Shown here piece by piece: positions 5,737 to 33,290 of a DNA stretch of 37,781 bases. Source of the DNA: a virus (taxonomy: Duplodnaviria; Caudoviricetes); IMG/VR virus record IMGVR_UViG_3300025528_000017, positions 1 through 37,781 of that record, one strand, 5' to 3'. Numbering within the stretch: position 1 is the first letter of the stretch; every line of letters starts with the position of its first letter. Below the pieces are notes generated by a model. It was not told where the DNA came from, made no database searches, and worked only from the letters and a program-made list of their open reading frames with translations. The position numbers and the translations under genes are program-made.

Positions 5737-8171
5737 TGTGGCCGACACCGGGTGAGGCGCTGTCGCACACGATCGATGCAGAGGCCGCGGTCGCGGATCT
5801 GTATGCGGAGGCGCTGCGACGGTGGGCGCCGCACGGGCGGGCGGCGGTGCTGCCCAGCCTCGACGCCACGGTGGTCACGGGGGAGTCGGGGATTGTGGCG
5901 TCGACGCTGCCGCCCGACCCGGATGCGTTGGAGCGGACGCAAAGCATCTGGGATGAGATCGCTGAGGCGGTGATTCTTGGCGGGCTGGGCCTGTTGTGGG
6001 CGGTGACGTTCGTGCGAGCGCGGCGTGCGCTCGGCCTGGCCGTGCCTGAATCGGGCGACGTGGACGAGGTGCTCGATACCGACAGCGTCCCGGTGGACGC
6101 GTCGGCGCTGTCGATCGTGGCCCGCGCCGCGGACGCGACGCCGACCGAAGTGCGTGAGGCCGCTGCGGCGGTCCGGGCAGTTGCTGCACCCCGTCAAGCG
6201 GTGGAAGATTTCACCGCGACGCGTCGGCAGGTCGTCTCCGCGACGCTCGGTGTGGTGCGGAAAACGGTGTCCGTCGCGGTGGCCGCAGTCCCGGAGACGA
6301 TGGCCGGCCAGGCTGCTGCGGTGCGTGCGGTGGCTGCCGACGTGCTCGACCCGGATTCGCAGCACATGCGCGATATCGCCCGCAACGAGGGCTACCAGGC
6401 CGCCGGCGTCATGAACCACGCGGTAGTGGAGGCTGCCCGCGGCTCAGATGAGGAGCTGGAGAAGACCTGGATCTGCACGATCGACGGCAAGACCCGGCCG
6501 ACACATTGGGCGGCCGATGGGCAGCGGGTGCCGCTGGACGGGAAGTTCACGATTGGCACCGAGCAGCTGGCGTATCCGGGTGATGAGTCGGCTCATCCGC
6601 GGGAGTGGAAGAACTGCCGGTGTCGGGTTGGGATTCTGGCGCCGGATGAGCCGCTGCCCGATGAGGTCGACCGGCACACTGAGCGGCTCGATGGCCGCGA
6701 CAGCGTGGTGATCCACCGGCAAGGCCGCACCCAGGCAGAGGAGATTGAGCGCCGCGCCAAGGCCGGCAATGTGCGGGCGCGTGACGACGAGGACGGGATC
6801 GGACGTGTGGCGTCCGCTGGGTGGACCGCACTGAGTGAACAGGAGTACGACATGGTCAACGAGCTGTCCGCCGACGCTGACGACACCAGCAACGACGAGA
6901 CATTCCTGACGTTCACCGACGCGCTGTTCGCGGTCACCGGTGTGCCGACGTCGGATGGGCGCATGTTGTCCGCTGACATCGACCTGTCGTTCCGTGACAC
7001 CCCGATGCCGCTGCAGTGGTGCGAGGAAATGGAGGGCGGACATCACGGATCCGTCACCGTCGGTGTTATTGAGTCGATCGCGCTCAAGGACGGTGAGGTG
7101 CGGGCGTCCGGGTACCTGCTCAACAACGAGCACGCGGTCAAGGCGATCGATCTCATCGCCCACGGTGTGTGCAACCCGTCGGTGGATCTGGGCAGCGTCG
7201 AGTGGGTGGCCACCGACGAGGACGGCAACGTCGTCACCGAGGAGAACTACGAAGACGGAATGACCGTCTATATGACGGTCACGAAAGCCGAGGTGTTGGC
7301 CACCACTATCGTGGCCATCCCGGCGTTCGGGGAGACCAGGATCGCGCTTAACGAGGAACGGGAGCACCGCGACAAGACGCTGGTCGCGTCCGCCGAGGGA
7401 TTCCGGCCGCGCGTGTACGACCCACAGATGTTCGCCGATCCGCAGTTGTCGGGTCCGACACCGATCCAGATGGACCCCGAGACCGGCCGCGTGTTCGGGC
7501 ATGTGGCGTGCTGGGCAGAACGGCACCGGTCGGTCGGGCTGGGGCACATGCACCCGCCGCGGTCGAAGTCGGGCTACGAGCATTTCCACTCCAGCCCGCC
7601 GGTGCACCTGTCGGACGGCACACTGCTGCCGGTCGGCCGGCTCACTGTGGGCACCGGTCACGCGGATACGCGGCTCGGGCCGGCCGCGGCGGCTGCTCAC
7701 TACGACAACACGGGCGCATGCTGGGCGCTGGTGCGTGCGGGTGAGGATACGCACGGGATCTGGGTGTCAGGTGTGGTGGCGCCGTGGGCGACTCCCGAGC
7801 AGGTGGAGATGGGGTTAGCGTCTCCGCTGTCCGGTGATTGGCGGCCGTTCGGCCGCGACCTGGAGCTGGTCGCGGTCTTGTCGGTGAATACCCCCGGGTT
7901 TTTGTGCCGGGGTTCGACGGACAGTCGCGGCAACCCGACAGCACTGGTCGCGTCGTTGTCACCGCGCCCGGGCGCCGACGCTTCGGCCGGCCATCTGACG
8001 CTGGCGGACATTAAGGCGGCGATGGCGGAGGCGATCGCTGAGGAACGCCGCAACCACGAGCTGGCGCAGCGGAGGGCCGAGGTCCTGGCCCGCGCCGAGC
8101 AGTCGGTCGGCGCACCGCCCAAGCCACCGACGCATGCGGATCGAGTTGCCGCGCTGCTGGAAAGGATCTGA
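5736..8171 (+). CDS. MuF-like head morphogenesis and capsid maturation protease fusion
   Basis: MuF motif KTWICTIDGKTRPTH..ADGQRVP...NCRC in the N-terminal half; prohead protease-like C-terminal half (TSDGRML, PMPL, HHGSVTVG, IVAIPAF). Confidence 0.88.
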   Translation: MWPTPGEALSHTIDAEAAVADLYAEALRRWAPHGRAAVLPSLDATVVTGESGIVASTLPPDPDALERTQSIWDEIAEAVILGGLGLLWAVTFVRARRALGLAVPESGDVDEVLDTDSVPVDASALSIVARAADATPTEVREAAAAVRAVAAPRQAVEDFTATRRQVVSATLGVVRKTVSVAVAAVPETMAGQAAAVRAVAADVLDPDSQHMRDIARNEGYQAAGVMNHAVVEAARGSDEELEKTWICTIDGKTRPTHWAADGQRVPLDGKFTIGTEQLAYPGDESAHPREWKNCRCRVGILAPDEPLPDEVDRHTERLDGRDSVVIHRQGRTQAEEIERRAKAGNVRARDDEDGIGRVASAGWTALSEQEYDMVNELSADADDTSNDETFLTFTDALFAVTGVPTSDGRMLSADIDLSFRDTPMPLQWCEEMEGGHHGSVTVGVIESIALKDGEVRASGYLLNNEHAVKAIDLIAHGVCNPSVDLGSVEWVATDEDGNVVTEENYEDGMTVYMTVTKAEVLATTIVAIPAFGETRIALNEEREHRDKTLVASAEGFRPRVYDPQMFADPQLSGPTPIQMDPETGRVFGHVACWAERHRSVGLGHMHPPRSKSGYEHFHSSPPVHLSDGTLLPVGRLTVGTGHADTRLGPAAAAAHYDNTGACWALVRAGEDTHGIWVSGVVAPWATPEQVEMGLASPLSGDWRPFGRDLELVAVLSVNTPGFLCRGSTDSRGNPTALVASLSPRPGADASAGHLTLADIKAAMAEAIAEERRNHELAQRRAEVLARAEQSVGAPPKPPTHADRVAALLERI

Positions 8172-8175
8172 CCCG

Positions 8176-8349
8176 ATGGGGTGCGGATGCCGGGGCAAGA
8201 AGCGCGCCGGGACGCGAGCGAAGGTCGTGGGGTTCGACTATGTGCCGCCAGGTGGTGGTGATCCGATCCGGTTCATGACCTCGATGGAAGCGCTGCTCGA
8301 GCAGCGCAAACGTGGCGGCGGCACCATCTACCAAGTCACCAGCGACTGA
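8176..8349 (+). CDS. Small basic protein (57 aa, MGCGC start)
   Basis: ATG 4 nt after the protease stop with an AAGGA RBS; typical small gene at this position in B-like phages. Confidence 0.75.
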   Translation: MGCGCRGKKRAGTRAKVVGFDYVPPGGGDPIRFMTSMEALLEQRKRGGGTIYQVTSD

Positions 8350-8461
8350 CTTCGACCTTCGCGCGCAGCGTGCCCTCGTTCGGGCCCGAGATTCAAGAGA
8401 TGGTTTGCTGGAAGATCGACTGCCGTTTCACTGGATATGCAGCTGATGCCGACCAGGTGAA

Positions 8462-8489
8462 CGGCCCCCACCTTGGATGGTGGGGGCCG
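8462..8489 (+). terminator. GC-rich hairpin, possible terminator before the capsid promoter
   Basis: CGGCCCCCACC-ttggat-GGTGGGGGCCG, perfect 11-bp stem; a short T run follows about 8 nt later. Confidence 0.55.
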
Positions 8490-8548
8490 CTTGCCGCTTT
8501 TGTCGCGTTGCCAGACGCTGACACCCATGATGCTATCCGCTCCCGCTG

Positions 8549-8567
8549 CACCCTGTGCTCATAGCTT
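8549..8567 (+). promoter_or_regulatory. CACCC-N8-TANNNT promoter motif, leadered, major capsid
   Basis: CACCC tgtgctca TAGCTT; about 80-nt leader with AGGAG at 8641. Confidence 0.75.
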
Positions 8568-8653
8568 GTTGCGGCAGAGAGTTCCTGCTGGCTGCGGGCC
8601 GAGGGGCGATCCGACAGGCAAGGTTTCACACCTTTGAGACAGGAGTTACCGCA

Positions 8654-10402
8654 GTGAAGTTCACCCTGCCCGATCAGTTGCCCGTCACTGTCGCCGAGCT
8701 GGACGAACTAGCCGACCAGGCGACCAAAGAGATCCGCGTGTACCAGACCCGCCACGAAGCTGGCGACGAGCTGTCGGTCGAGGACGCCGAACGGTTGGAG
8801 TACCTGCTGGATTCGCGGGACAAGATCATCGCGGCCCGCGACGAGGCCGCCAGCGCCGAGCAGGACCACACCAGCCGGCTGGCCAGCCTGCTGGACCGAG
8901 CCAACGCCCCGGCCGCCGAGGAGTCTGCTGAGGACACCACCGACGCGGACAGCGACGACGCCAGCGAGTCCGGCGAGGTTATCGCCGAAGCCGAGCAGAT
9001 CACCGAGGAAGCCGCCGAGGAGCAGCAGGCGGTTGCCGCGTCCGCGCAGCGTCCCGTGACGTTCGCCGGAGCCGCACCAGCGGATCAGCTGCCTGACGCC
9101 GCGGAGAACACCGGTGAGCCTGCCAAGCGATGGGAGCTGCTGCCATCGGCGCCGCGGTACGCCAACTTCGGCACCGAGAAGGTCACCTCCCGGGAGATCG
9201 CGCTGGCGATCGATTCCGTGAAGCCCGGGCAGCGCACCGGGATGCAGCCGACCGGCCGCCGTGATCTGGCCGGCGTGGCGTTCGCCACCCAGGCGATCGC
9301 GAAGATGGAACGCCCGCACGGCACGATCATCGAAGACCCGCAGCAGCTGCACGTGGCGCTGGACCGTCTCGCCGACGAGATCCCCGGCCACGGTGCGGTG
9401 TCCGCGCAGACGCTGGTCGCATCCGGCGGCTGGTGCGCACCCAGCGAGCAGCTGTACGACTTCTGCGATACTCCGGCCGCGGCGAACCTGATCTCGCTGC
9501 CGGAGATCACGATCCGCCGTGGCGGCATCCGGTTCCCCGCCGAGCCGGATTTCTCCGAGCTGCTGACCGGGTTCCACTTCACTGAGACGGAGCTGGAAGC
9601 CACCGACCAAGACGGCAATCCGACGGCGATCAAGGATTGCGTCGAGGTGCCCTGCCCCGACGAGATGGTCGAGTACCGGCTCGAGGCGATCGGCTGGTGC
9701 GTCAAGGCCGGGATCCTGCAGCGGCAGGGTTGGCCGGAGCTGATCCAGAAGTTCATTGACGAATTCCTGGTCGCGCACCAGTACCGGGTGTCGGCGCTGA
9801 CGGTGTCAAAGATGGTTGCGGCGTCGGTGGCGAAGACCGTTCCGACCGATGCGGTGCTGGGCGCCACCTCGGGTGTGCTCAACGGTCTGCACGTGCAGGC
9901 GCGAAACCTGCAGCTCAAGGCTCGCAAGGCCACCATCGAAGGCGTCGCGCCGGTGTGGTTCCGCGACGTGCTGCGGGCCGACCTCGCCCTGCGCGAGGGC
10001 CTGGACGTGCTGGCCGTGACCGACGCGCAGATCGACAACTGGCTCGCGGTACGCGGTATCTACCTGCAGTACGAGCACACCTGGCAGTCCCTCGATGAGG
10101 GCAAGCCCGGGCACCTGGACACCACGTGGTGGCCGGACAGCGTGCAGGTGCTGCTGTACCCGGCCGGCGCGTTCTTCCGCAGCCTGGACAACGTCATCAC
10201 GCTCGGCGTCCAGTACCCGATGGAGCAGGTGCAGCAGAACCGCTATACGCACGGGTTCGTCGAGGATGCGTTCCTCGTCGGGAAGCGGTGCGACCCGTCG
10301 CTGCTGGTGACTGTGCCGTTGTGCGTCAACGGCGCTGTCGGCGCGCGGGAGCAGATCGTCTGCACAGGAGCTGACAACGGTTCGGGTGAGGGCGAAGGCT
10401 AA
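8654..10402 (+). CDS. Major capsid (hexamer) protein with N-terminal scaffold-like region
   Basis: AGGAG RBS before GTG 8654; acidic coiled-coil N-terminus; LVASGGWCAPSEQLYDFC and LPEITIRRGGIRF motifs of B-type capsids. Confidence 0.9.
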   Translation: MKFTLPDQLPVTVAELDELADQATKEIRVYQTRHEAGDELSVEDAERLEYLLDSRDKIIAARDEAASAEQDHTSRLASLLDRANAPAAEESAEDTTDADSDDASESGEVIAEAEQITEEAAEEQQAVAASAQRPVTFAGAAPADQLPDAAENTGEPAKRWELLPSAPRYANFGTEKVTSREIALAIDSVKPGQRTGMQPTGRRDLAGVAFATQAIAKMERPHGTIIEDPQQLHVALDRLADEIPGHGAVSAQTLVASGGWCAPSEQLYDFCDTPAAANLISLPEITIRRGGIRFPAEPDFSELLTGFHFTETELEATDQDGNPTAIKDCVEVPCPDEMVEYRLEAIGWCVKAGILQRQGWPELIQKFIDEFLVAHQYRVSALTVSKMVAASVAKTVPTDAVLGATSGVLNGLHVQARNLQLKARKATIEGVAPVWFRDVLRADLALREGLDVLAVTDAQIDNWLAVRGIYLQYEHTWQSLDEGKPGHLDTTWWPDSVQVLLYPAGAFFRSLDNVITLGVQYPMEQVQQNRYTHGFVEDAFLVGKRCDPSLLVTVPLCVNGAVGAREQIVCTGADNGSGEGEG

Positions 10403-10426
10403 GGCTAAGCCGGCCGCGGATGAGCG

Positions 10427-10473
10427 AGGCGGGCAGCGTGAATCTCTCCGAGGCGGTTCACGTCTGCCCGCCT
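10427..10473 (+). other. Long intergenic stem-loop between the two capsid genes
   Basis: AGGCGGGCAG-CGTGAA pairs with TTCACG-t-CTGCCCGCCT (16 bp, one bulge); no U-tract. Confidence 0.7.
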
Positions 10474-10498
10474 TCCCCAATCTGAGAGGACGGGACGT

Positions 10499-11293
10499 AT
10501 GACTACCGCGCTGATGCCGGTGCAGTTCGACGCGCCGCTGGTCAACCCAGCGCCCAACGGATTGTTCGCCGCGGTGATTTGGCAGCCGTGGGAGGGTCCG
10601 CTGCGGTTCCTCGAGGGCGTCGACATCACCGTGTTCAACTACGGCGGCGCCGAATCGTTCGGGGTGTGGCGAGCCGACTGGTGCTCCACCTCAAAGGATC
10701 TCGAGCCCACGGATGTGAAAACCGGTGAGCGTCCCACGATGCCGGACACGTTCACGGCGATGACCACCTGGGCATACGACGAGTGCGACCTGACTAAGCG
10801 CAGCCGTGAGGAGGTCCTCACCCGAGCCGAGCAGGTCCACCGGCTGCAGGAACCCAACGCCGCCGAAACCGAGTTCGCCACCCGTCTTTTGGCTGATGCG
10901 GGTGCCGCCGACCCGGCCGCCGACATCACCGCCGCGCTGGCCGCATTGGAGGCTGGGTTGGCGCGCACCAACACCGTAGGCGTGATTCACGCCGGTGCGC
11001 AGTGGGCGGCGCCGGCGGCGCAAGCCGGGCTGATCGTCCGTTCCGGCGCCGGGCTCAAGACACCGCTGGGTCATACGTGGGTGTTCGGCGGTGGCTACGT
11101 CGATGCGCTCGACGATGTGTTGGTGGCGACGTCCCCGGTGTTGGGGTGGCGCGGCCCGGTCGAGGTGCGCGATGCGATGGTGCTGAAGCGCAACCGGTTC
11201 GGAGCGATCGCGGAGCGGTCTCTGGTGCTCGGTTACGAATCCGTGATCGGCGCGGCGGAGATCACGCAGGATCAGGGAAGCGACGTGGAGTGA
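10499..11293 (+). CDS. Major capsid pentamer protein (B-type second capsid protein)
   Basis: 264 aa directly after the hexamer gene, GAGAGGA RBS, TPLGHTWVFGGGY motif; assignment by synteny with cluster B phages. Confidence 0.75.
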   Translation: MTTALMPVQFDAPLVNPAPNGLFAAVIWQPWEGPLRFLEGVDITVFNYGGAESFGVWRADWCSTSKDLEPTDVKTGERPTMPDTFTAMTTWAYDECDLTKRSREEVLTRAEQVHRLQEPNAAETEFATRLLADAGAADPAADITAALAALEAGLARTNTVGVIHAGAQWAAPAAQAGLIVRSGAGLKTPLGHTWVFGGGYVDALDDVLVATSPVLGWRGPVEVRDAMVLKRNRFGAIAERSLVLGYESVIGAAEITQDQGSDVE

Positions 11294-11294
11294 C

Positions 11295-11654
11295 ATGCCT
11301 GCCGGTGTTGAGGTCACCGTCGTTGACGGGTTCGCCACGATCGATTTCGTGGACCGGTCCAAACGGGGACCAGGGCTGGCGGCGCTGCTCGAGGTGTGCG
11401 GCCCGGATCTGGTGCAGACGCTGACCCGGGAGGGCCCGCGACGGCTGTACCGGGTGCCGGAGGGCAACGCTCGAGCAGCGGGGCTGCTCGACGTACCAGC
11501 GCAGCCCGCTCCGACCGCGCCGGATCGCCGTGCGCCCGACGACAGCTGGAGCCGCGCGGAGTTGAACGCGTACGCGGTCAGCATCGGCATCGAATCACCG
11601 GAGAAGCTACGAAGCAAGGAAGCGGTCCTCAACGCGATCAGACACGCCGGGTGA
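11295..11654 (+). CDS. Head-associated hypothetical protein with C-terminal HeH/Rho-N-like helical module
   Basis: WSRAELNAYAVSIGI...SKEAVLNAI pattern; tightly packed after the pentamer gene. Confidence 0.75.
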   Translation: MPAGVEVTVVDGFATIDFVDRSKRGPGLAALLEVCGPDLVQTLTREGPRRLYRVPEGNARAAGLLDVPAQPAPTAPDRRAPDDSWSRAELNAYAVSIGIESPEKLRSKEAVLNAIRHAG

Positions 11655-11663
11655 GGTGTCACC

Positions 11664-12074
11664 GTGACGTGGCGACTGGTCCGCGATGACGCGCTGCAGT
11701 TCGTTCAGCTCTACCTGCTGGCCGTGGCCGTGGTTCGCGGCGTCGACTATCTCATCACCCCACCCGGGTCGTCGGCGGTCTTGTACTTCATCGAGCGCGC
11801 CGCGCCGCTGCCGGTGTGGGCGCTGATGTTCATCACCCTCGGCATCGTCGGCATAGCCGGGGAATGGTGGATCGGCTTCGGCGCCAGCCCGCATCGGTGG
11901 CTGGCGTCCTACGTAGCGCACGCCGCGCTGGCCAGCGTCTACACCGCCGTCGGCGTCGGTGCGCTGATCGAAATCTTCAGCCGACAACCGATCTACGGAT
12001 TCCGCACCCCTGTCGAATGGCTGCTCCTCGCAGCCATGCACGCGATATTCGTGCGGAGGAGAGAGCGTGTCTGA
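11664..12074 (+). CDS. Membrane protein with about 4 TM helices (holin-like)
   Basis: Four hydrophobic segments, basic C-terminus (RRRERV), GAGGTG RBS. Confidence 0.75.
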   Translation: MTWRLVRDDALQFVQLYLLAVAVVRGVDYLITPPGSSAVLYFIERAAPLPVWALMFITLGIVGIAGEWWIGFGASPHRWLASYVAHAALASVYTAVGVGALIEIFSRQPIYGFRTPVEWLLLAAMHAIFVRRRERV

Positions 12075-12555
12075 CCCGGAACGCGTGTTGTTGTCGGACC
12101 TCCCGCCATCCCTGCTGCTGATTCTCGCGATCGTGGTGTTCCTGGCATACACGCTGCCGCGAATCGCGGAAGCATCAGAGGCGGCGGCCAAACTGCTCGG
12201 ACCGATCGGCCGGTACTGGCGCGAACGAGGATTGACCCGCGCTGAACAGCGCCGCGCCGAAGTGCAGCGTGAAGCCCGCCAGTTGGCGAAAGCGATTGTC
12301 GCCGAGGTCACCCCGCCGGACTACGCCGAGATGGAACGCCGGCTGGCAAACATGGACCGCCGGATCAAGGTGCTCGAAGAATCCGATCAAATTCAGCGGG
12401 CCTACATCATCTACGACGAGCACTGGCACTTCGCCGACGAGATGGCCGCTGTCCGAAACCCCGAATGCACACCGGCGCCCAGGTACACGTTCGACCAGTT
12501 CAAGGAGCGGTGGCGCCAGGGCTGGCGGCCCGGCCGGCCATCCCCACAGCACTGA
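12067..12555 (+). CDS. Single-TM membrane protein with coiled coil
   Basis: N-terminal hydrophobic helix followed by a charged helical region; overlaps the upstream gene. Confidence 0.8.
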   Translation: MSDPERVLLSDLPPSLLLILAIVVFLAYTLPRIAEASEAAAKLLGPIGRYWRERGLTRAEQRRAEVQREARQLAKAIVAEVTPPDYAEMERRLANMDRRIKVLEESDQIQRAYIIYDEHWHFADEMAAVRNPECTPAPRYTFDQFKERWRQGWRPGRPSPQH

Positions 12556-12566
12556 CCGGTCGGATG

Positions 12567-12585
12567 CACCCACCCCTCTTACTGT
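12567..12585 (+). promoter_or_regulatory. CACCC-N8-TANNNT promoter motif, leadered, major tail
   Basis: CACCC acccctct TACTGT; leader carries an AGGAGG RBS before ATG 12653. Confidence 0.75.
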
Positions 12586-12652
12586 GCGGATCAGCCTCGG
12601 AGCACCTGAACACCCGGCGCGCAGCGCCCCATAGCAGGAGGACAGCCAGCAC

Positions 12653-13483
12653 ATGGCTCATGCAGTCGTCAAGGGCTACAAGCTCCGCGCAACCAAGGTG
12701 GATTCGTGCGGGCTTCCGATCGAGGGGCCAGCGAACCGGCTCGTCACCGACGGTTTCATCCGAGTGAACCTCGACCCAAACATGCGGGACGCGGAGGAGA
12801 TCGAGCAGGCCAACGCCGCCGGCGAGATTTGCGTCGCTGACCGCACCCCGCCGGAGCGGAAGTGGTGGAACACCGAAATCCAGCTGTGCCGGGTTGATCC
12901 GGACCTCTACGCGCTGGTCGCGTCCTGGGCTCGGGTGCTCGACTACGACGGCAAGCCCATCGGCTTTCGGGACCGCGCCAAGGTCGACACCGATACCGGT
13001 GTGATGTTCGAGCTGTGGACTGGCGGCGACGGCGACGACGACTGCCCGCCGCCGGAGGACGACTCGATCTTCTCCGCGGCGGCTTCCGGACGCCAGTACG
13101 GCTACGTGGCGTTCGCAGGCACGGAGTTCGTATCCGGCCCGCTGACGGTGGAAGCTGCGGCGTCGACGTTCACCCTCACGGGTCGCACGATCGCCCCGAA
13201 GAACTGGGGTCGCGGACCGTACAACGTCGCGGCGATCAACGGGTCCGGCGCGGCGGGTCGGCTGCTGGTGCCGGCCTACGACCCGGACGATGACAACCAC
13301 ATCGTGCACTTCCGCACACCGGTCGCGCCGCCGGAGGTCACCGACGGCGCTGTGCCGCTGGACATCACCAGCACCTTCACGCCCCCGAACTACTACTTCG
13401 GCGGCCCGGGCGGTGAGCCGGCCGCGGACGTGGCGCCGGACCAGCCCGACAACGGTTCCGGTGAGGGTGAGGGCGAAGGATAG
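12653..13483 (+). CDS. Major tail (tube) protein
   Basis: Strong RBS; VKGYKLRATKVDSCG, NAAGEICV and WGRGPYNV resemble B-type major tail proteins; position fits. Confidence 0.88.
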   Translation: MAHAVVKGYKLRATKVDSCGLPIEGPANRLVTDGFIRVNLDPNMRDAEEIEQANAAGEICVADRTPPERKWWNTEIQLCRVDPDLYALVASWARVLDYDGKPIGFRDRAKVDTDTGVMFELWTGGDGDDDCPPPEDDSIFSAAASGRQYGYVAFAGTEFVSGPLTVEAAASTFTLTGRTIAPKNWGRGPYNVAAINGSGAAGRLLVPAYDPDDDNHIVHFRTPVAPPEVTDGAVPLDITSTFTPPNYYFGGPGGEPAADVAPDQPDNGSGEGEGEG

Positions 13484-13500: not shown

Positions 13501-14112
13501 GTGACTGAACGGCGGCCGGACACGCTGCTCATGCTCAGCGGGGGCATCGACTCCGCATACTGCCTGTGGCAGCGTGTCCGCGCCGGCCAGTACACCCGTA
13601 CGCACCACGTGTCGTTGGCCGATCACGAAGGCCGGCGCGACGTGGAGGACCGCGCCGTGCAGCAGATCCTGGACTGGATGCGCCGCAACGGTGGCGAGGG
13701 TCTGATCGAGCACACCAGCTCGGCCATGGATTTTCGGGACATGTGGATCCCGAAGAACTTTCACGCCTGGGCTTATTGGGCCGGCGCGATCATGGCCTCA
13801 CCGCGCGGCCAGTCGATCACCACTGTGATCCTGCCCCGGCATTCCGACGCGTTCCGCGGCGGACCCAACTCGCCCGGCGCCCGGAAGTCCGACGCCGCAT
13901 ACCGCGGACACATCAAGCTCATCTGCGGACGCGAGCCGAGGCTGTCGCTGCCGATGGCGCATCTGACGAAGGCCGAAGCGGTGGCGGCGATGCCGGAGGA
14001 TCTGCTGCGGCTGTGCTGGTGGTGCCGACGACCCCGCGCTGGTCAGCCGTGCCACAAGTGCATGACCTGCCGCCAGGTCGATCCAGCATTGGCCGCACGC
14101 TGGCGGCGTTGA
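13501..14112 (+). CDS. QueC-like PP-loop ATPase (7-cyano-7-deazaguanine synthase family, divergent)
   Basis: LLMLSGGIDS PP-loop, PMAHLTKAE, and C-x8-C-x2-C-x2-C Zn site (CRRPRAGQPCHKCMTC). Lacks the canonical YPDC motif. Confidence 0.85.
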   Translation: MTERRPDTLLMLSGGIDSAYCLWQRVRAGQYTRTHHVSLADHEGRRDVEDRAVQQILDWMRRNGGEGLIEHTSSAMDFRDMWIPKNFHAWAYWAGAIMASPRGQSITTVILPRHSDAFRGGPNSPGARKSDAAYRGHIKLICGREPRLSLPMAHLTKAEAVAAMPEDLLRLCWWCRRPRAGQPCHKCMTCRQVDPALAARWRR

Positions 14113-16257: not shown

Positions 16258-16755
16258 ATGACCACGTTTGCCTCGGACGGAACCCCCAAACCTGAACCTG
16301 CAGAGCCCCAGCCGGCCGCCGACCCGTCGACCGTCGAGCCTGTCCCGGCCGCCGTCCCCGCGGCCAGCGGCGCCGACACCGGCGAATCGCTGCCCGCTGT
16401 GCAGACCGCAAACACCGACGTCGCCGTCCCGGAGGATGACTGGCCGCACGACTGGCTCGAGTTCAAGGGCGACACGCTCGCCGTTCGCGTCCCGACCCCA
16501 CAGGCTATGGCCGCGCTCTCCCAAGGGCTCGGAAAGTTCATCCCACCGCAGGAGCAGAACGACATCAGCGGGTTGTTCATCGCCCGCCACCTGTCCCCGC
16601 AGGCGTATGCGCGGGTGTTCTCTCGGCTGATGGACCCAGACGACGCCGACTACGACCCGAACACGATCGGGGAGCTCGTCGCGGCGCTGCTCAACGCCGG
16701 TGTGGAGAAGTACAAGCAGCAGACGTGCTCAGCAAATCCAGAGACCTCGGAGTAG
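16258..16755 (+). CDS. Tail assembly chaperone (G-like)
   Basis: Immediately upstream of the tape measure gene; acidic, 165 aa. Confidence 0.75.
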   Translation: MTTFASDGTPKPEPAEPQPAADPSTVEPVPAAVPAASGADTGESLPAVQTANTDVAVPEDDWPHDWLEFKGDTLAVRVPTPQAMAALSQGLGKFIPPQEQNDISGLFIARHLSPQAYARVFSRLMDPDDADYDPNTIGELVAALLNAGVEKYKQQTCSANPETSE

Positions 16756-32613: not shown

Positions 32614-32970
32614 ATGTATGAACCGCCACCCGGTTTCGATGACATGCTCGGCGACGCTGAGCTCGTCCCCATGGAAGGCCCGTTCCGGCCACTCGAGGTG
32701 CCAGGGGTCGGCAGTGTGCTGGCACGCAGACCGATGCCGCGATCCACTGCGGCGCTGGCCATGAGCGCGAACGCGAAAATCGATGCCACCGCCCGCCAGG
32801 ATTACCTCACCCTCTTCGTGCGCAACCATCTGGCTGACGGCGAATACGAGCGGCTGACGGTTGCGATGATCAACGGCGAAGCGCCGCCGGACACCCTCGG
32901 CAGGGTCGCGCGATCTATCTCCACTTGGGGCACGGCGCGCCCTACGTCGCCGTCATCAGCCTCGCGTTGA
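32614..32970 (+). CDS. Second tail assembly chaperone (G-like paralog)
   Basis: Collinear similarity to 16258..16755 (RxPxP..AAL, LF..HL...Y.R, P.T.G); ends GTARPT-SPSSASR. Confidence 0.7.
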   Translation: MYEPPPGFDDMLGDAELVPMEGPFRPLEVPGVGSVLARRPMPRSTAALAMSANAKIDATARQDYLTLFVRNHLADGEYERLTVAMINGEAPPDTLGRVARSISTWGTARPTSPSSASR

Positions 32971-33290
32971 TGGCGGCTCACCACTGGAGAACGCTGCGGC
33001 AACGGATCCGGTCGAACGGCATCGCTGACCCGATGTCGCTGTCGTCGATGCACGCGGTTATCGACGAGATGGAGGCGCTCGCGCTGGAGGCCGCCGGGTC
33101 GTCCTTCGATGATCCGGACCGGGCACGCCGCGAACGACAAGAGCTGCTCGACAAGCTGTACGCGCCCGCCCCGGAGGGCGCCGAAGACCTCAACGGCGAG
33201 CAGTATCAGCCGCCTCCGTCCGGGTTCGAGGACCCCGCCGAGGTAGAGGCCAGTTTCGATGCGTTCTCCCGGGCGCTGGGTGCACGCTGA
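32940..33290 (+). CDS. T-like chaperone extension, probably reached by -1 frameshift (alternative ATG 32969)
   Basis: The -1 frame is open across the end of the G gene (PYVAVISLALMAAHHWR..GIADP); acidic helical protein; no clear RBS. Confidence 0.6.
   Translation, partial: PYVAVISLALMAAHHWRTLRQRIRSNGIADPMSLSSMHAVIDEMEALALEAAGSSFDDPDRARRERQELLDKLYAPAPEGAEDLNGEQYQPPPSGFEDPAEVEASFDAFSRALGAR

Follow-up and report, generated by a model that had tools for sequence, protein, structure and literature searches.

Several described systems place chemical groups on protein termini in ways that bear on the locus reported here. Lasso-peptide cyclases and the diphthine-ammonia ligase Dph6, both of the PP-loop type, form an amide by first adenylating a carboxylate on a peptide or protein. 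In tubulin-tail glutamylation and glycylation by TTL enzymes, and for RimK, the acceptors are C-terminal tails, flexible and rich in Gly/Glu, on the surface of a polymer. In the virion glycosylation system of mycobacteriophages the acceptor is a conserved C-terminal Ser, and this system, treated by Freeman et al. in 2023, is said to comprise a phage-encoded enzyme and short shared C-terminal ends. Within the QueC family, Cap9 of type IV CBASS is reported to use ATP to activate CDG at its carboxylate, which is then coupled to the amine of an N-terminal Gly (10.1101/2025.04.06.647259), and Cap9 and QatC thereby provide a precedent for a QueC enzyme working on a flexible Gly-rich protein terminus (10.1101/2025.04.06.647259, PMC13329287). 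Here we analyzed a stretch of 37,781 nucleotides of viral DNA (Caudoviricetes; IMG/VR record IMGVR_UViG_3300025528_000017, 56% complete; hereafter the window), in which the major capsid and major tail proteins end in the same Gly-Glu repeat and a QueC-family gene lies directly behind the tail gene. In this analysis we observed the repeat tags and, for the enzyme, the model fold and unbroken motifs for ATP and zinc; tag and enzyme were also found together in virion modules that are unrelated to one another. The capsid/tail repeat probably serves the neighboring enzyme as its substrate tag.

The locus resembles mycobacteriophage virion glycosylation in its phage-encoded enzyme, its capsid and tail-tube subunits and its shared C-terminal ends, and differs from it in that the tag is a Gly-Glu repeat instead of being Ser-ended and an adenylating enzyme of the PP-loop type takes the place of a glycosyltransferase. 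With Cap9 and QatC it has in common the QueC fold, the SGGxDS loop, the zinc site and a length of ~200 residues, Cap9 being the best structural match and likewise a minimal QueC fold (~185-200 residues, against 203 for the window enzyme). Unlike those host defence enzymes, which attach CDG to an N-terminal Gly amine, the present enzyme is phage-encoded and is paired with a C-terminal, carboxylate-only tag; compared with Cap9 it has no Arg-Asn and neither the Tyr nor the Cys of YxDC, keeps Asp116 and has no partner genes, whereas QatC is ~400 residues long with a C(x)19CGxCxxRR motif, and the QatC model NF041925 gave no match for the window enzyme. Canonical QueC, including that of Rosebush and Qyrzula, has the same SGGxDS loop, zinc motif and PF06508 domain, but here the three substrate motifs are not kept, queD is missing and the gene lies in a virion operon. 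The lasso cyclases and Dph6 are built on AsnB-like or Dph6 scaffolds without the QueC zinc site and act at a single site, not on a virion repeat, while TTL enzymes and RimK have the ATP-grasp fold, which is merely a neighbor of the PP-loop/QueC enzyme in three of our loci. Finally, the ~90-residue peripheral domains of cluster B2/B3/W phages and of the major tail protein (MTP) in the Jabs cryo-EM preprint are attached at the same point on capsid and tail as the tag, yet they are folded domains without a linked enzyme, in contrast to a repeat of 9-11 residues.

Tagged virion proteins and the QueC-family gene

The window belongs to a two-capsid-protein mycobacterial phage, with PHROGs matches to the terminase, portal, capsid hexamer, pentamer family, tail tube, adaptor, tape measure and lysins, arranged as in cluster B/W-like phages. 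On the given (+) strand, which carries all features described below, the open reading frame (ORF) of the major capsid hexamer spans 8555..10402 (phrog_777, E 1e-202), its true start probably lying ~30 codons inside, and the major tail (tube) protein spans 12653..13483 (phrog_792, E 2e-114; matched by 861 phage records). The capsid terminates in a short polar linker followed by (Gly-Glu)2-Gly (10373-10399, then TAA, to 10402) and the tail in the same linker followed by (Gly-Glu)3-Gly (13448-13480, then TAG, to 13483); the last nine residues are identical, and the tail has one additional Gly-Glu unit. These coordinates and translations had been given correctly in a preliminary description of the DNA. 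That description also called the two tag DNAs near-identical and the proteins otherwise unrelated, which agrees with 24 of 27 identical bases in the 5' register, all three differences being at third positions, and with the assignment of the proteins to separate major head (phrog_777) and major tail (phrog_792) families. A chance origin of the common tag was rejected, as nine-residue common ends among 26 genes are expected only ~2e-7 times under a plain composition model, which overstates the significance for low-complexity sequence. Three further explanations were rejected as well: a frameshift fusion of tagged protein and enzyme (frame offsets of 0, +1 or +2 in 8 loci, and in the window a -1 frame stop at 13468), a readthrough extension (a second in-frame stop follows one codon later in the capsid gene and six codons later in the tail gene), and a Shine-Dalgarno role of the tag DNA (synonymous codon changes occur between tags, and for several of them the next gene is 70-130 bases away).

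The major capsid pentamer protein (10499..11293; phrog_779; 55% identical to the Taptic 'major capsid pentamer protein') has a degenerate acidic C-terminus (11270-11290). Its proposed kinship with the tag is a loose match in the window but gains from G801, a prophage in a Mycobacterium-genus chromosome that is 98-99% identical to the window, where Gly replaces Val and a Gly-Glu unit is thereby restored. The G801 hexamer has an extra unit, and its last 11 residues equal those of the tail. Because of these hexamer and pentamer differences, we regard the repeat number as fluid and the pentamer end as a drifting copy. Full tags are present on the pentamers of the L019 and L022 phages and of the prophage G846. 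Across the tagged loci the repeat comprises 2 to 9 units (counted by eye from printed ends) and terminates in G, E, V, I or A, with Gly-Glu constant, Ser and the terminal residue variable, and Lys absent; the L022 tags contain neither Ser nor Thr.

The proteins of prophiT49-1, which are 53% (hexamer), 61% (pentamer) and 69% (tail) identical to those of the window, match in length and cysteine positions those in the Jabs preprint. According to that preprint, C-terminal extensions of the MCPh build a turret that protrudes from each hexon, MTP residues 265-352 form a peripheral domain, and the particle has 480 hexon subunits and 58 tail rings of six. The tail tag, residues 266-276, sits where the MTP has this domain, and residues 268-276 fall below 50 in an AlphaFold tail model of mean pLDDT 85.8, so that the tag is predicted to be disordered. 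From the homologous positions of the hexamer turret and the tail peripheral domain, the tags would be surface-exposed, which supports the earlier idea of a shared, exposed tag. Sequence searches of the PDB with the enzyme, hexamer and tail gave no match, nor did a search of genome contigs with the tail protein.

The gene for the QueC-family PP-loop ATP pyrophosphatase (13501..14112; 203 residues; PF06508, E 5e-6; phrog_1550), which the preliminary description had missed, begins 17 bases 3' of the tail stop and is missing from that place in the 13 relatives first compared. Its product is basic (pI 9.8; median 9.0 over 43 homologues). The SGGIDS pyrophosphate-binding loop (13537..13554; S13, G14, G15, D17 and S18) and the C-x8-C-x2-C-x2-C zinc site (14023..14070; C175, C184, C187 and C190) are invariant in 41 homologues. 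The closest fold to the enzyme model (pLDDT 96.7) is Cap9 (9NTO_B; Z 17.9, rmsd 2.7, 171 aligned residues), followed by QueC (3BL5; Z 16.2) and other PP-loop enzymes at Z of 13 or below.

The current annotation, 'QueC-like queuosine biosynthesis', and the proximity of the fold to Cap9 and QueC would suit an enzyme that makes or transfers a 7-deazaguanine, as preQ0 for DNA or in a Cap9-type deazaguanylation, with the tag unrelated to it. We consider this very unlikely. The substrate motifs of canonical QueC are given as YxQxHxxE, VPxRN and YPDC (PMC13329287), and in a motif comparison with the 41 homologues none of them is kept in the enzyme: judging equivalence from sequence position, not from superposed coordinates, the first is replaced by H35-H36..G44-R45..E49, the second by P84-K85-N86 without Arg, and the third by H114-x-D116. 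The score against TIGR00364 is 16.2 bits with a cut-off of 150.3. QueD was found in none of four complete tagged phages (Muddy, DS6A, PIS136 and L028; the control Qyrzula matched) and in none of four host genomes including G801, and the enzyme profile misses the Qyrzula-type QueC of a B2 record among the 79 control records described below. No CD-NTase or Cap10 gene stands beside the enzyme, whose neighbors are the tail tube and the head-tail adaptor, and this context is unlike any of the seven clusters described in the accessible part of PMC13329287. A TGT family search gave no match in five records, the intended control included. The wider QueC-like family (2,949 representatives at E 0.001) also holds tandem double proteins of 400-450 residues (P0045, P0103-P0107, P0121 and P0164). 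In Muddy, the annotated start of the homologue gp16 (L015:10160-10767) at 10216 lies too far 3' to include the first beta strand; translation probably begins within the DNA of the tail tag, where the annotations of FF47 and 8UZL place it.

Co-occurrence of the enzyme and the repeat

With the enzyme as tblastn query, 50,697 phage records gave matches in 11 records of 8 phages, and all six that were examined (Muddy, FF47, 8UZL, Maco7, DS6A and PIS136) have Gly-Glu capsid and tail ends, although the tail end of PIS136 is one Gly-Glu unit followed by acidic residues. The enzyme gene lies immediately 3' of the tail gene in the first four phages. In DS6A, which has 6-7 units, it is gene 2, 7 kb from the capsid as the nearest tag, and adjacency of enzyme and tag is therefore unnecessary. 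With environmental and prophage loci added by profile scans, the enzyme tree groups the homologues of at least 39% identity in a single clade of 20 rows (support 95/95; the near-duplicates L021, L023, L035, L047, L048, L053 and L057 were omitted). One row has no upstream DNA, and 17 of the other 19 are tagged as judged by eye. Both capsid and tail carry the tag in the window, Muddy, FF47, DS6A, PIS136, L019, L022, L024, L025, L027 and, weakly, L028; L029, L030, L050, L052 and L054 are tagged with one of the two ends readable, and L049 bears its tag on the head-tail adaptor. The tagged capsids fall into phrog_777, 10 and 247, and the tagged tails into phrog_792, 117, 885 and 3884. This survey of capsid and tail ends supports the earlier expectation that the tag would co-vary with a modifying enzyme.

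Outside the tree, the upstream gene of L055 is tagged, L056 has one unit, and L026 has a tagged small gene with the capsid end missing, while an enzyme-first search of 400 genomes yielded the prophage G846, with 6-9 units on hexamer, pentamer and tail and the enzyme directly 3' of the tail gene. Searches of 400 family-level genomes with the enzyme profile and of 400 class-level genomes with the enzyme protein gave no new match. More distant homologues (21-38% identity; 22 loci from L031-34, L036-37, L039-46 and, in part, L058-67) were rejected as tag partners, and because homologues below 39% identity lie outside tagged virion operons, the tag-enzyme link is confined to the clade.

Comparison from the side of the tail gave a similar association. 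Searched over their full length, the 79 viral records that hold this tail family (38 with a completeness of 90% or more) contain no clade enzyme, one weak fragment at E 2e-4 being the nearest match; one of the 79, L131, has a partial tag on its tail. Among the top 120 tail homologues, at least two units in the last 16 residues occur in two, the window's own and the L019 type, both of which are enzyme carriers. In a tail tree of 49 rows the six tagged rows need 3-4 changes, and a single tagged clade is rejected (AU p 9e-5). NoShow and JacoRen57, members of Muddy's genus with tails 76-78% identical to that of Muddy, have neither the gene nor the repeat, the enzyme absence in NoShow coming from a whole-record profile search. 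Among proteins annotated as major capsid or major tail, a repeat end was found solely in phages that bear the enzyme.

Several observations weigh against the tag being the substrate of this enzyme. First, the 79 controls include ~20 near-identical prophages. Second, two members of the enzyme clade are untagged: L020, a complete provirus, at both capsid and tail, and L038, a satellite-like element whose capsid has merely two Asp near its end and which recurs, equally untagged, as the off-tree locus G782. Third, related ends occur without the enzyme. In L131 (11% complete) the tail ends in acidic residues among which two units are scattered, and no enzyme gene follows; JacoRen57 ends Glu-rich, and PG1 gp14 (L013:5689-6537, behind the pentamer gene) has an internal Gly-Glu/Gly-Asp repeat in a locus that lacks the clade enzyme. 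Two scans for DNA patterns that encode the repeat ahead of a stop returned 75 and 70 loci; among ORFs of at least 100 residues with in-frame repeat ends they recovered Muddy, DS6A, L019, L022 and a window-like contig, and ~20 further distinct ORFs have no clade enzyme within 10 kb. Of these enzyme-free ORFs, three are virion proteins by PHROGs and one is a possible capsid by position: a tail-fibre-like protein (L213) and the possible capsid (L151) in complete genomes and, on fragments, a baseplate hub and a virion protein. Whole-record searches of seven enzyme-free repeat loci, three or fewer of them complete, found no enzyme. Because repeat-ended ORFs occur without the clade enzyme, the repeat alone is not diagnostic. 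Fourth, Asp116, the counterpart of the YPDC Asp, is retained, so that the substrate might be a small molecule. At last, the support for a modification of the tag consists of co-occurrence and fold.

Repeats without the enzyme would also fit a tag that is an unmodified acidic brush or linker, left after the loss of the ~90-residue peripheral domain, with the enzyme a moron traveling with the tail 3' end. Most relatives have a domain of ~90-117 residues at this place on the tail and often on the capsid, the site 3' of the tail gene accepts other inserts (PG1), and in Muddy-like phages the enzyme start lies inside the tag DNA. This account, however, leaves unexplained the capsid and pentamer tags kilobases away, the distant gene of DS6A and the recurrence of the tag on unrelated capsid and tail families; moreover, the repeat is missing in 21 of 23 short tail homologues. 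We judge it improbable.

Three side observations concern these relatives. The satellite-like element (L038:79-3291 and L319:409-8558) is small, bears an integrase, occurs in two Mycobacterium-genus genomes and encodes a scaffold, a capsid and the enzyme; it might modify a helper phage. In the complete 63-kb phage G001 (L227:15441-16517), a possible capsid of 358 residues is repeat-ended and no QueC-like gene was found, and another partner enzyme may exist there. Many untagged relatives (L002-L147) have Thr-Pro or Pro-rich capsid, pentamer or tail ends, which by analogy could be host O-mannosylation sites.

Possible chemistry on the tag and alternative readings

The preliminary description had pointed to glycosylation and had listed Ser, Asp/Glu carboxylates and the terminal Gly as possible acceptors. 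GT2 (PF00535) had no match in the window or in the four complete tagged genomes, and Sparky matched as the control; other glycosyltransferase (GT) families were covered by annotations, by Pfam scans of selected ORFs and by the two glycosyltransferases of Sparky, which had no match in the tagged phages tested. Neither Muddy nor DS6A has an annotated glycosyltransferase, and the 22 ORFs examined on the G801 prophage's flanking arm include none. Sparky itself, with a capsid 70% identical to that of DS6A, has neither the enzyme nor the repeat, and its capsid and tail both terminate in Gly-Gly-Gly-Ser. Comparison of Sparky with DS6A suggests that this position can hold either of two tag-enzyme pairs, and Sparky (L233:5365-6333 and 8045-8707; L308:39586-41738) is likely a further case of virion glycosylation. 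O-glycosylation of the tag on Ser, as known from mycobacteriophage virions, could appeal to the Ser in the window tags, to the incompleteness of the window record and to the glycosylation of capsid and tail tube reported, second-hand, for Che8, Corndog and Myrna (PMC12363180). Against the missing glycosyltransferases, the Ser/Thr-free tags of L022 and the different, Ser-ended tag of the glycosyltransferase-bearing sister Sparky, we give it hardly any weight. Among the acceptors listed earlier, the Glu carboxylates fit, while the L022 tags speak against Ser and the variable last residue against the terminal Gly.

We consider it probable that the tag is either the target of the enzyme or the means through which it works and, with more reserve, we favor a modification of the tag Glu by acyl-adenylate chemistry. 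Both QueC and Cap9 form an acyl-adenylate on a carboxylate, from which an amine displaces AMP. Since the tags have no Lys, a variable last residue and no constant Ser/Thr, the Glu side chains are their common reactive group. By analogy with the family, the enzyme would adenylate the side-chain carboxylate of a tag Glu with ATP, and an amine would attack the acyl-adenylate, with AMP leaving and an amide remaining on Glu. The protein would thus supply the carboxylate, the reverse of Cap9; we place it in this role because the tag offers no amine, Glu is its sole constant reactive group and no deazaguanine supply was found. A first guess for the nucleophile would be a small host amine such as ammonia, a beta-alanine-like amino acid, a polyamine or an amino sugar, and backbone cyclisation at Glu-Gly would be an alternative chemistry. 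The Jabs stoichiometry would offer ~830 subunits, each with 2-3 Glu, so that the product could amount to a virion coat, and its likely purpose would be an altered surface charge, adhesion, protease resistance or recognition, in parallel to virion glycosylation.

Alternatively, the tag could be a docking address from which the basic enzyme modifies another site or molecule, or by which it rides the particle as decoration or cargo. The opposite charges of the enzyme (pI 9.8) and the acidic tag would favor such docking, as would the varying number of repeat units and the fusion of homologues to small domains that are otherwise separate phage genes, namely phrog_6480 (L027, L028 and L030) and SAP (P0048). 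However, the catalytic motifs are invariant, up to nine units on every subunit would hardly be needed for docking, and the Muddy capsid entry 8EDU lists the capsid chain only, among the matches listed, which is a weak objection to a flexible passenger. We hold docking without tag modification to be unlikely. The accessible part of the Muddy capsid structure paper does not mention the C-terminus. The fused phrog_6480 domain, labelled 'Arc-like repressor' (L027:10595-10963, L028:10595-10876, L030:4600-4959), would by its position be a small head-associated module.

For modification of the tag Glu by the enzyme, some neighboring genes offer candidate additional steps. A RimK-like ATP-grasp gene lies 3' of the enzyme in three two-capsid phages, PIS136 (L018:15705-16454), L025 (6161-6913) and L052 (4182-4979), P0074 joins a YheC/D ATP-grasp to a related domain in one protein, and in L049 (1257-1598) the gene directly 3' of the enzyme, within the virion operon, codes for an aspartate 1-decarboxylase (PanD, E 5e-39); none of these neighbors occurs in the window. 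The RimK-like gene is a candidate chain-extending enzyme, and PanD is a possible source of beta-alanine. More speculatively, and we are rather doubtful of it, the surface chemistry might resemble a 'tubulin code', in which the QueC-fold ligase would start a branch at the Glu gamma-carboxyl on a portable Gly-Glu tag, some phages would extend it by the RimK-like enzyme or bring their own amine (PanD, beta-alanine), and Muddy would carry hundreds of overlooked adducts affecting adhesion, stability or antibody neutralisation.

Other features of the virion region and implications

A strong hairpin (10426..10475) lies between the hexamer and pentamer genes, with a folding energy of -49.2 kcal/mol for 10400-10500 (z -3.2) and equal stability in 2 of 200 shuffles. 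As far as the sequence indicates, this hairpin likely attenuates pentamer expression and is no part of the tag system; it may set the 480:55 subunit ratio. The window further has two separate tail-assembly-chaperone-like loci (PF23781) at 16258-16755 and 32614-33290, the latter with an overlapping ORF typical of programmed frameshift.

In the accessible parts of the literature covered (including 10.64898/2026.07.24.740622, PMC12582341, PMC13693667, PMC10893344 and 10.1101/2022.09.09.507160), no paper ties a QueC-like gene or a Gly-Glu repeat to virion proteins; Freeman et al. 2023 and the supplements of PMC13329287 may bear on this point. The shared end is real and is probably what can be seen of a system made of a tag and an enzyme. 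If so, it would represent a second phage-directed chemistry of virion modification besides glycosylation, by an enzyme class unreported for that purpose, and would extend the QueC family to a new role, in which a phage enzyme acts on protein carboxylates; a gene now annotated as queuosine biosynthesis would be reassigned. A tag of 6-10 residues and a ligase of 200 residues, if they work together on scaffolds of unrelated families, would also make a compact tool for protein labelling. Muddy is in patient use with gp16 unannotated, and a coat on nearly every capsid and tail subunit of this phage would bear on its antigenicity and clearance.

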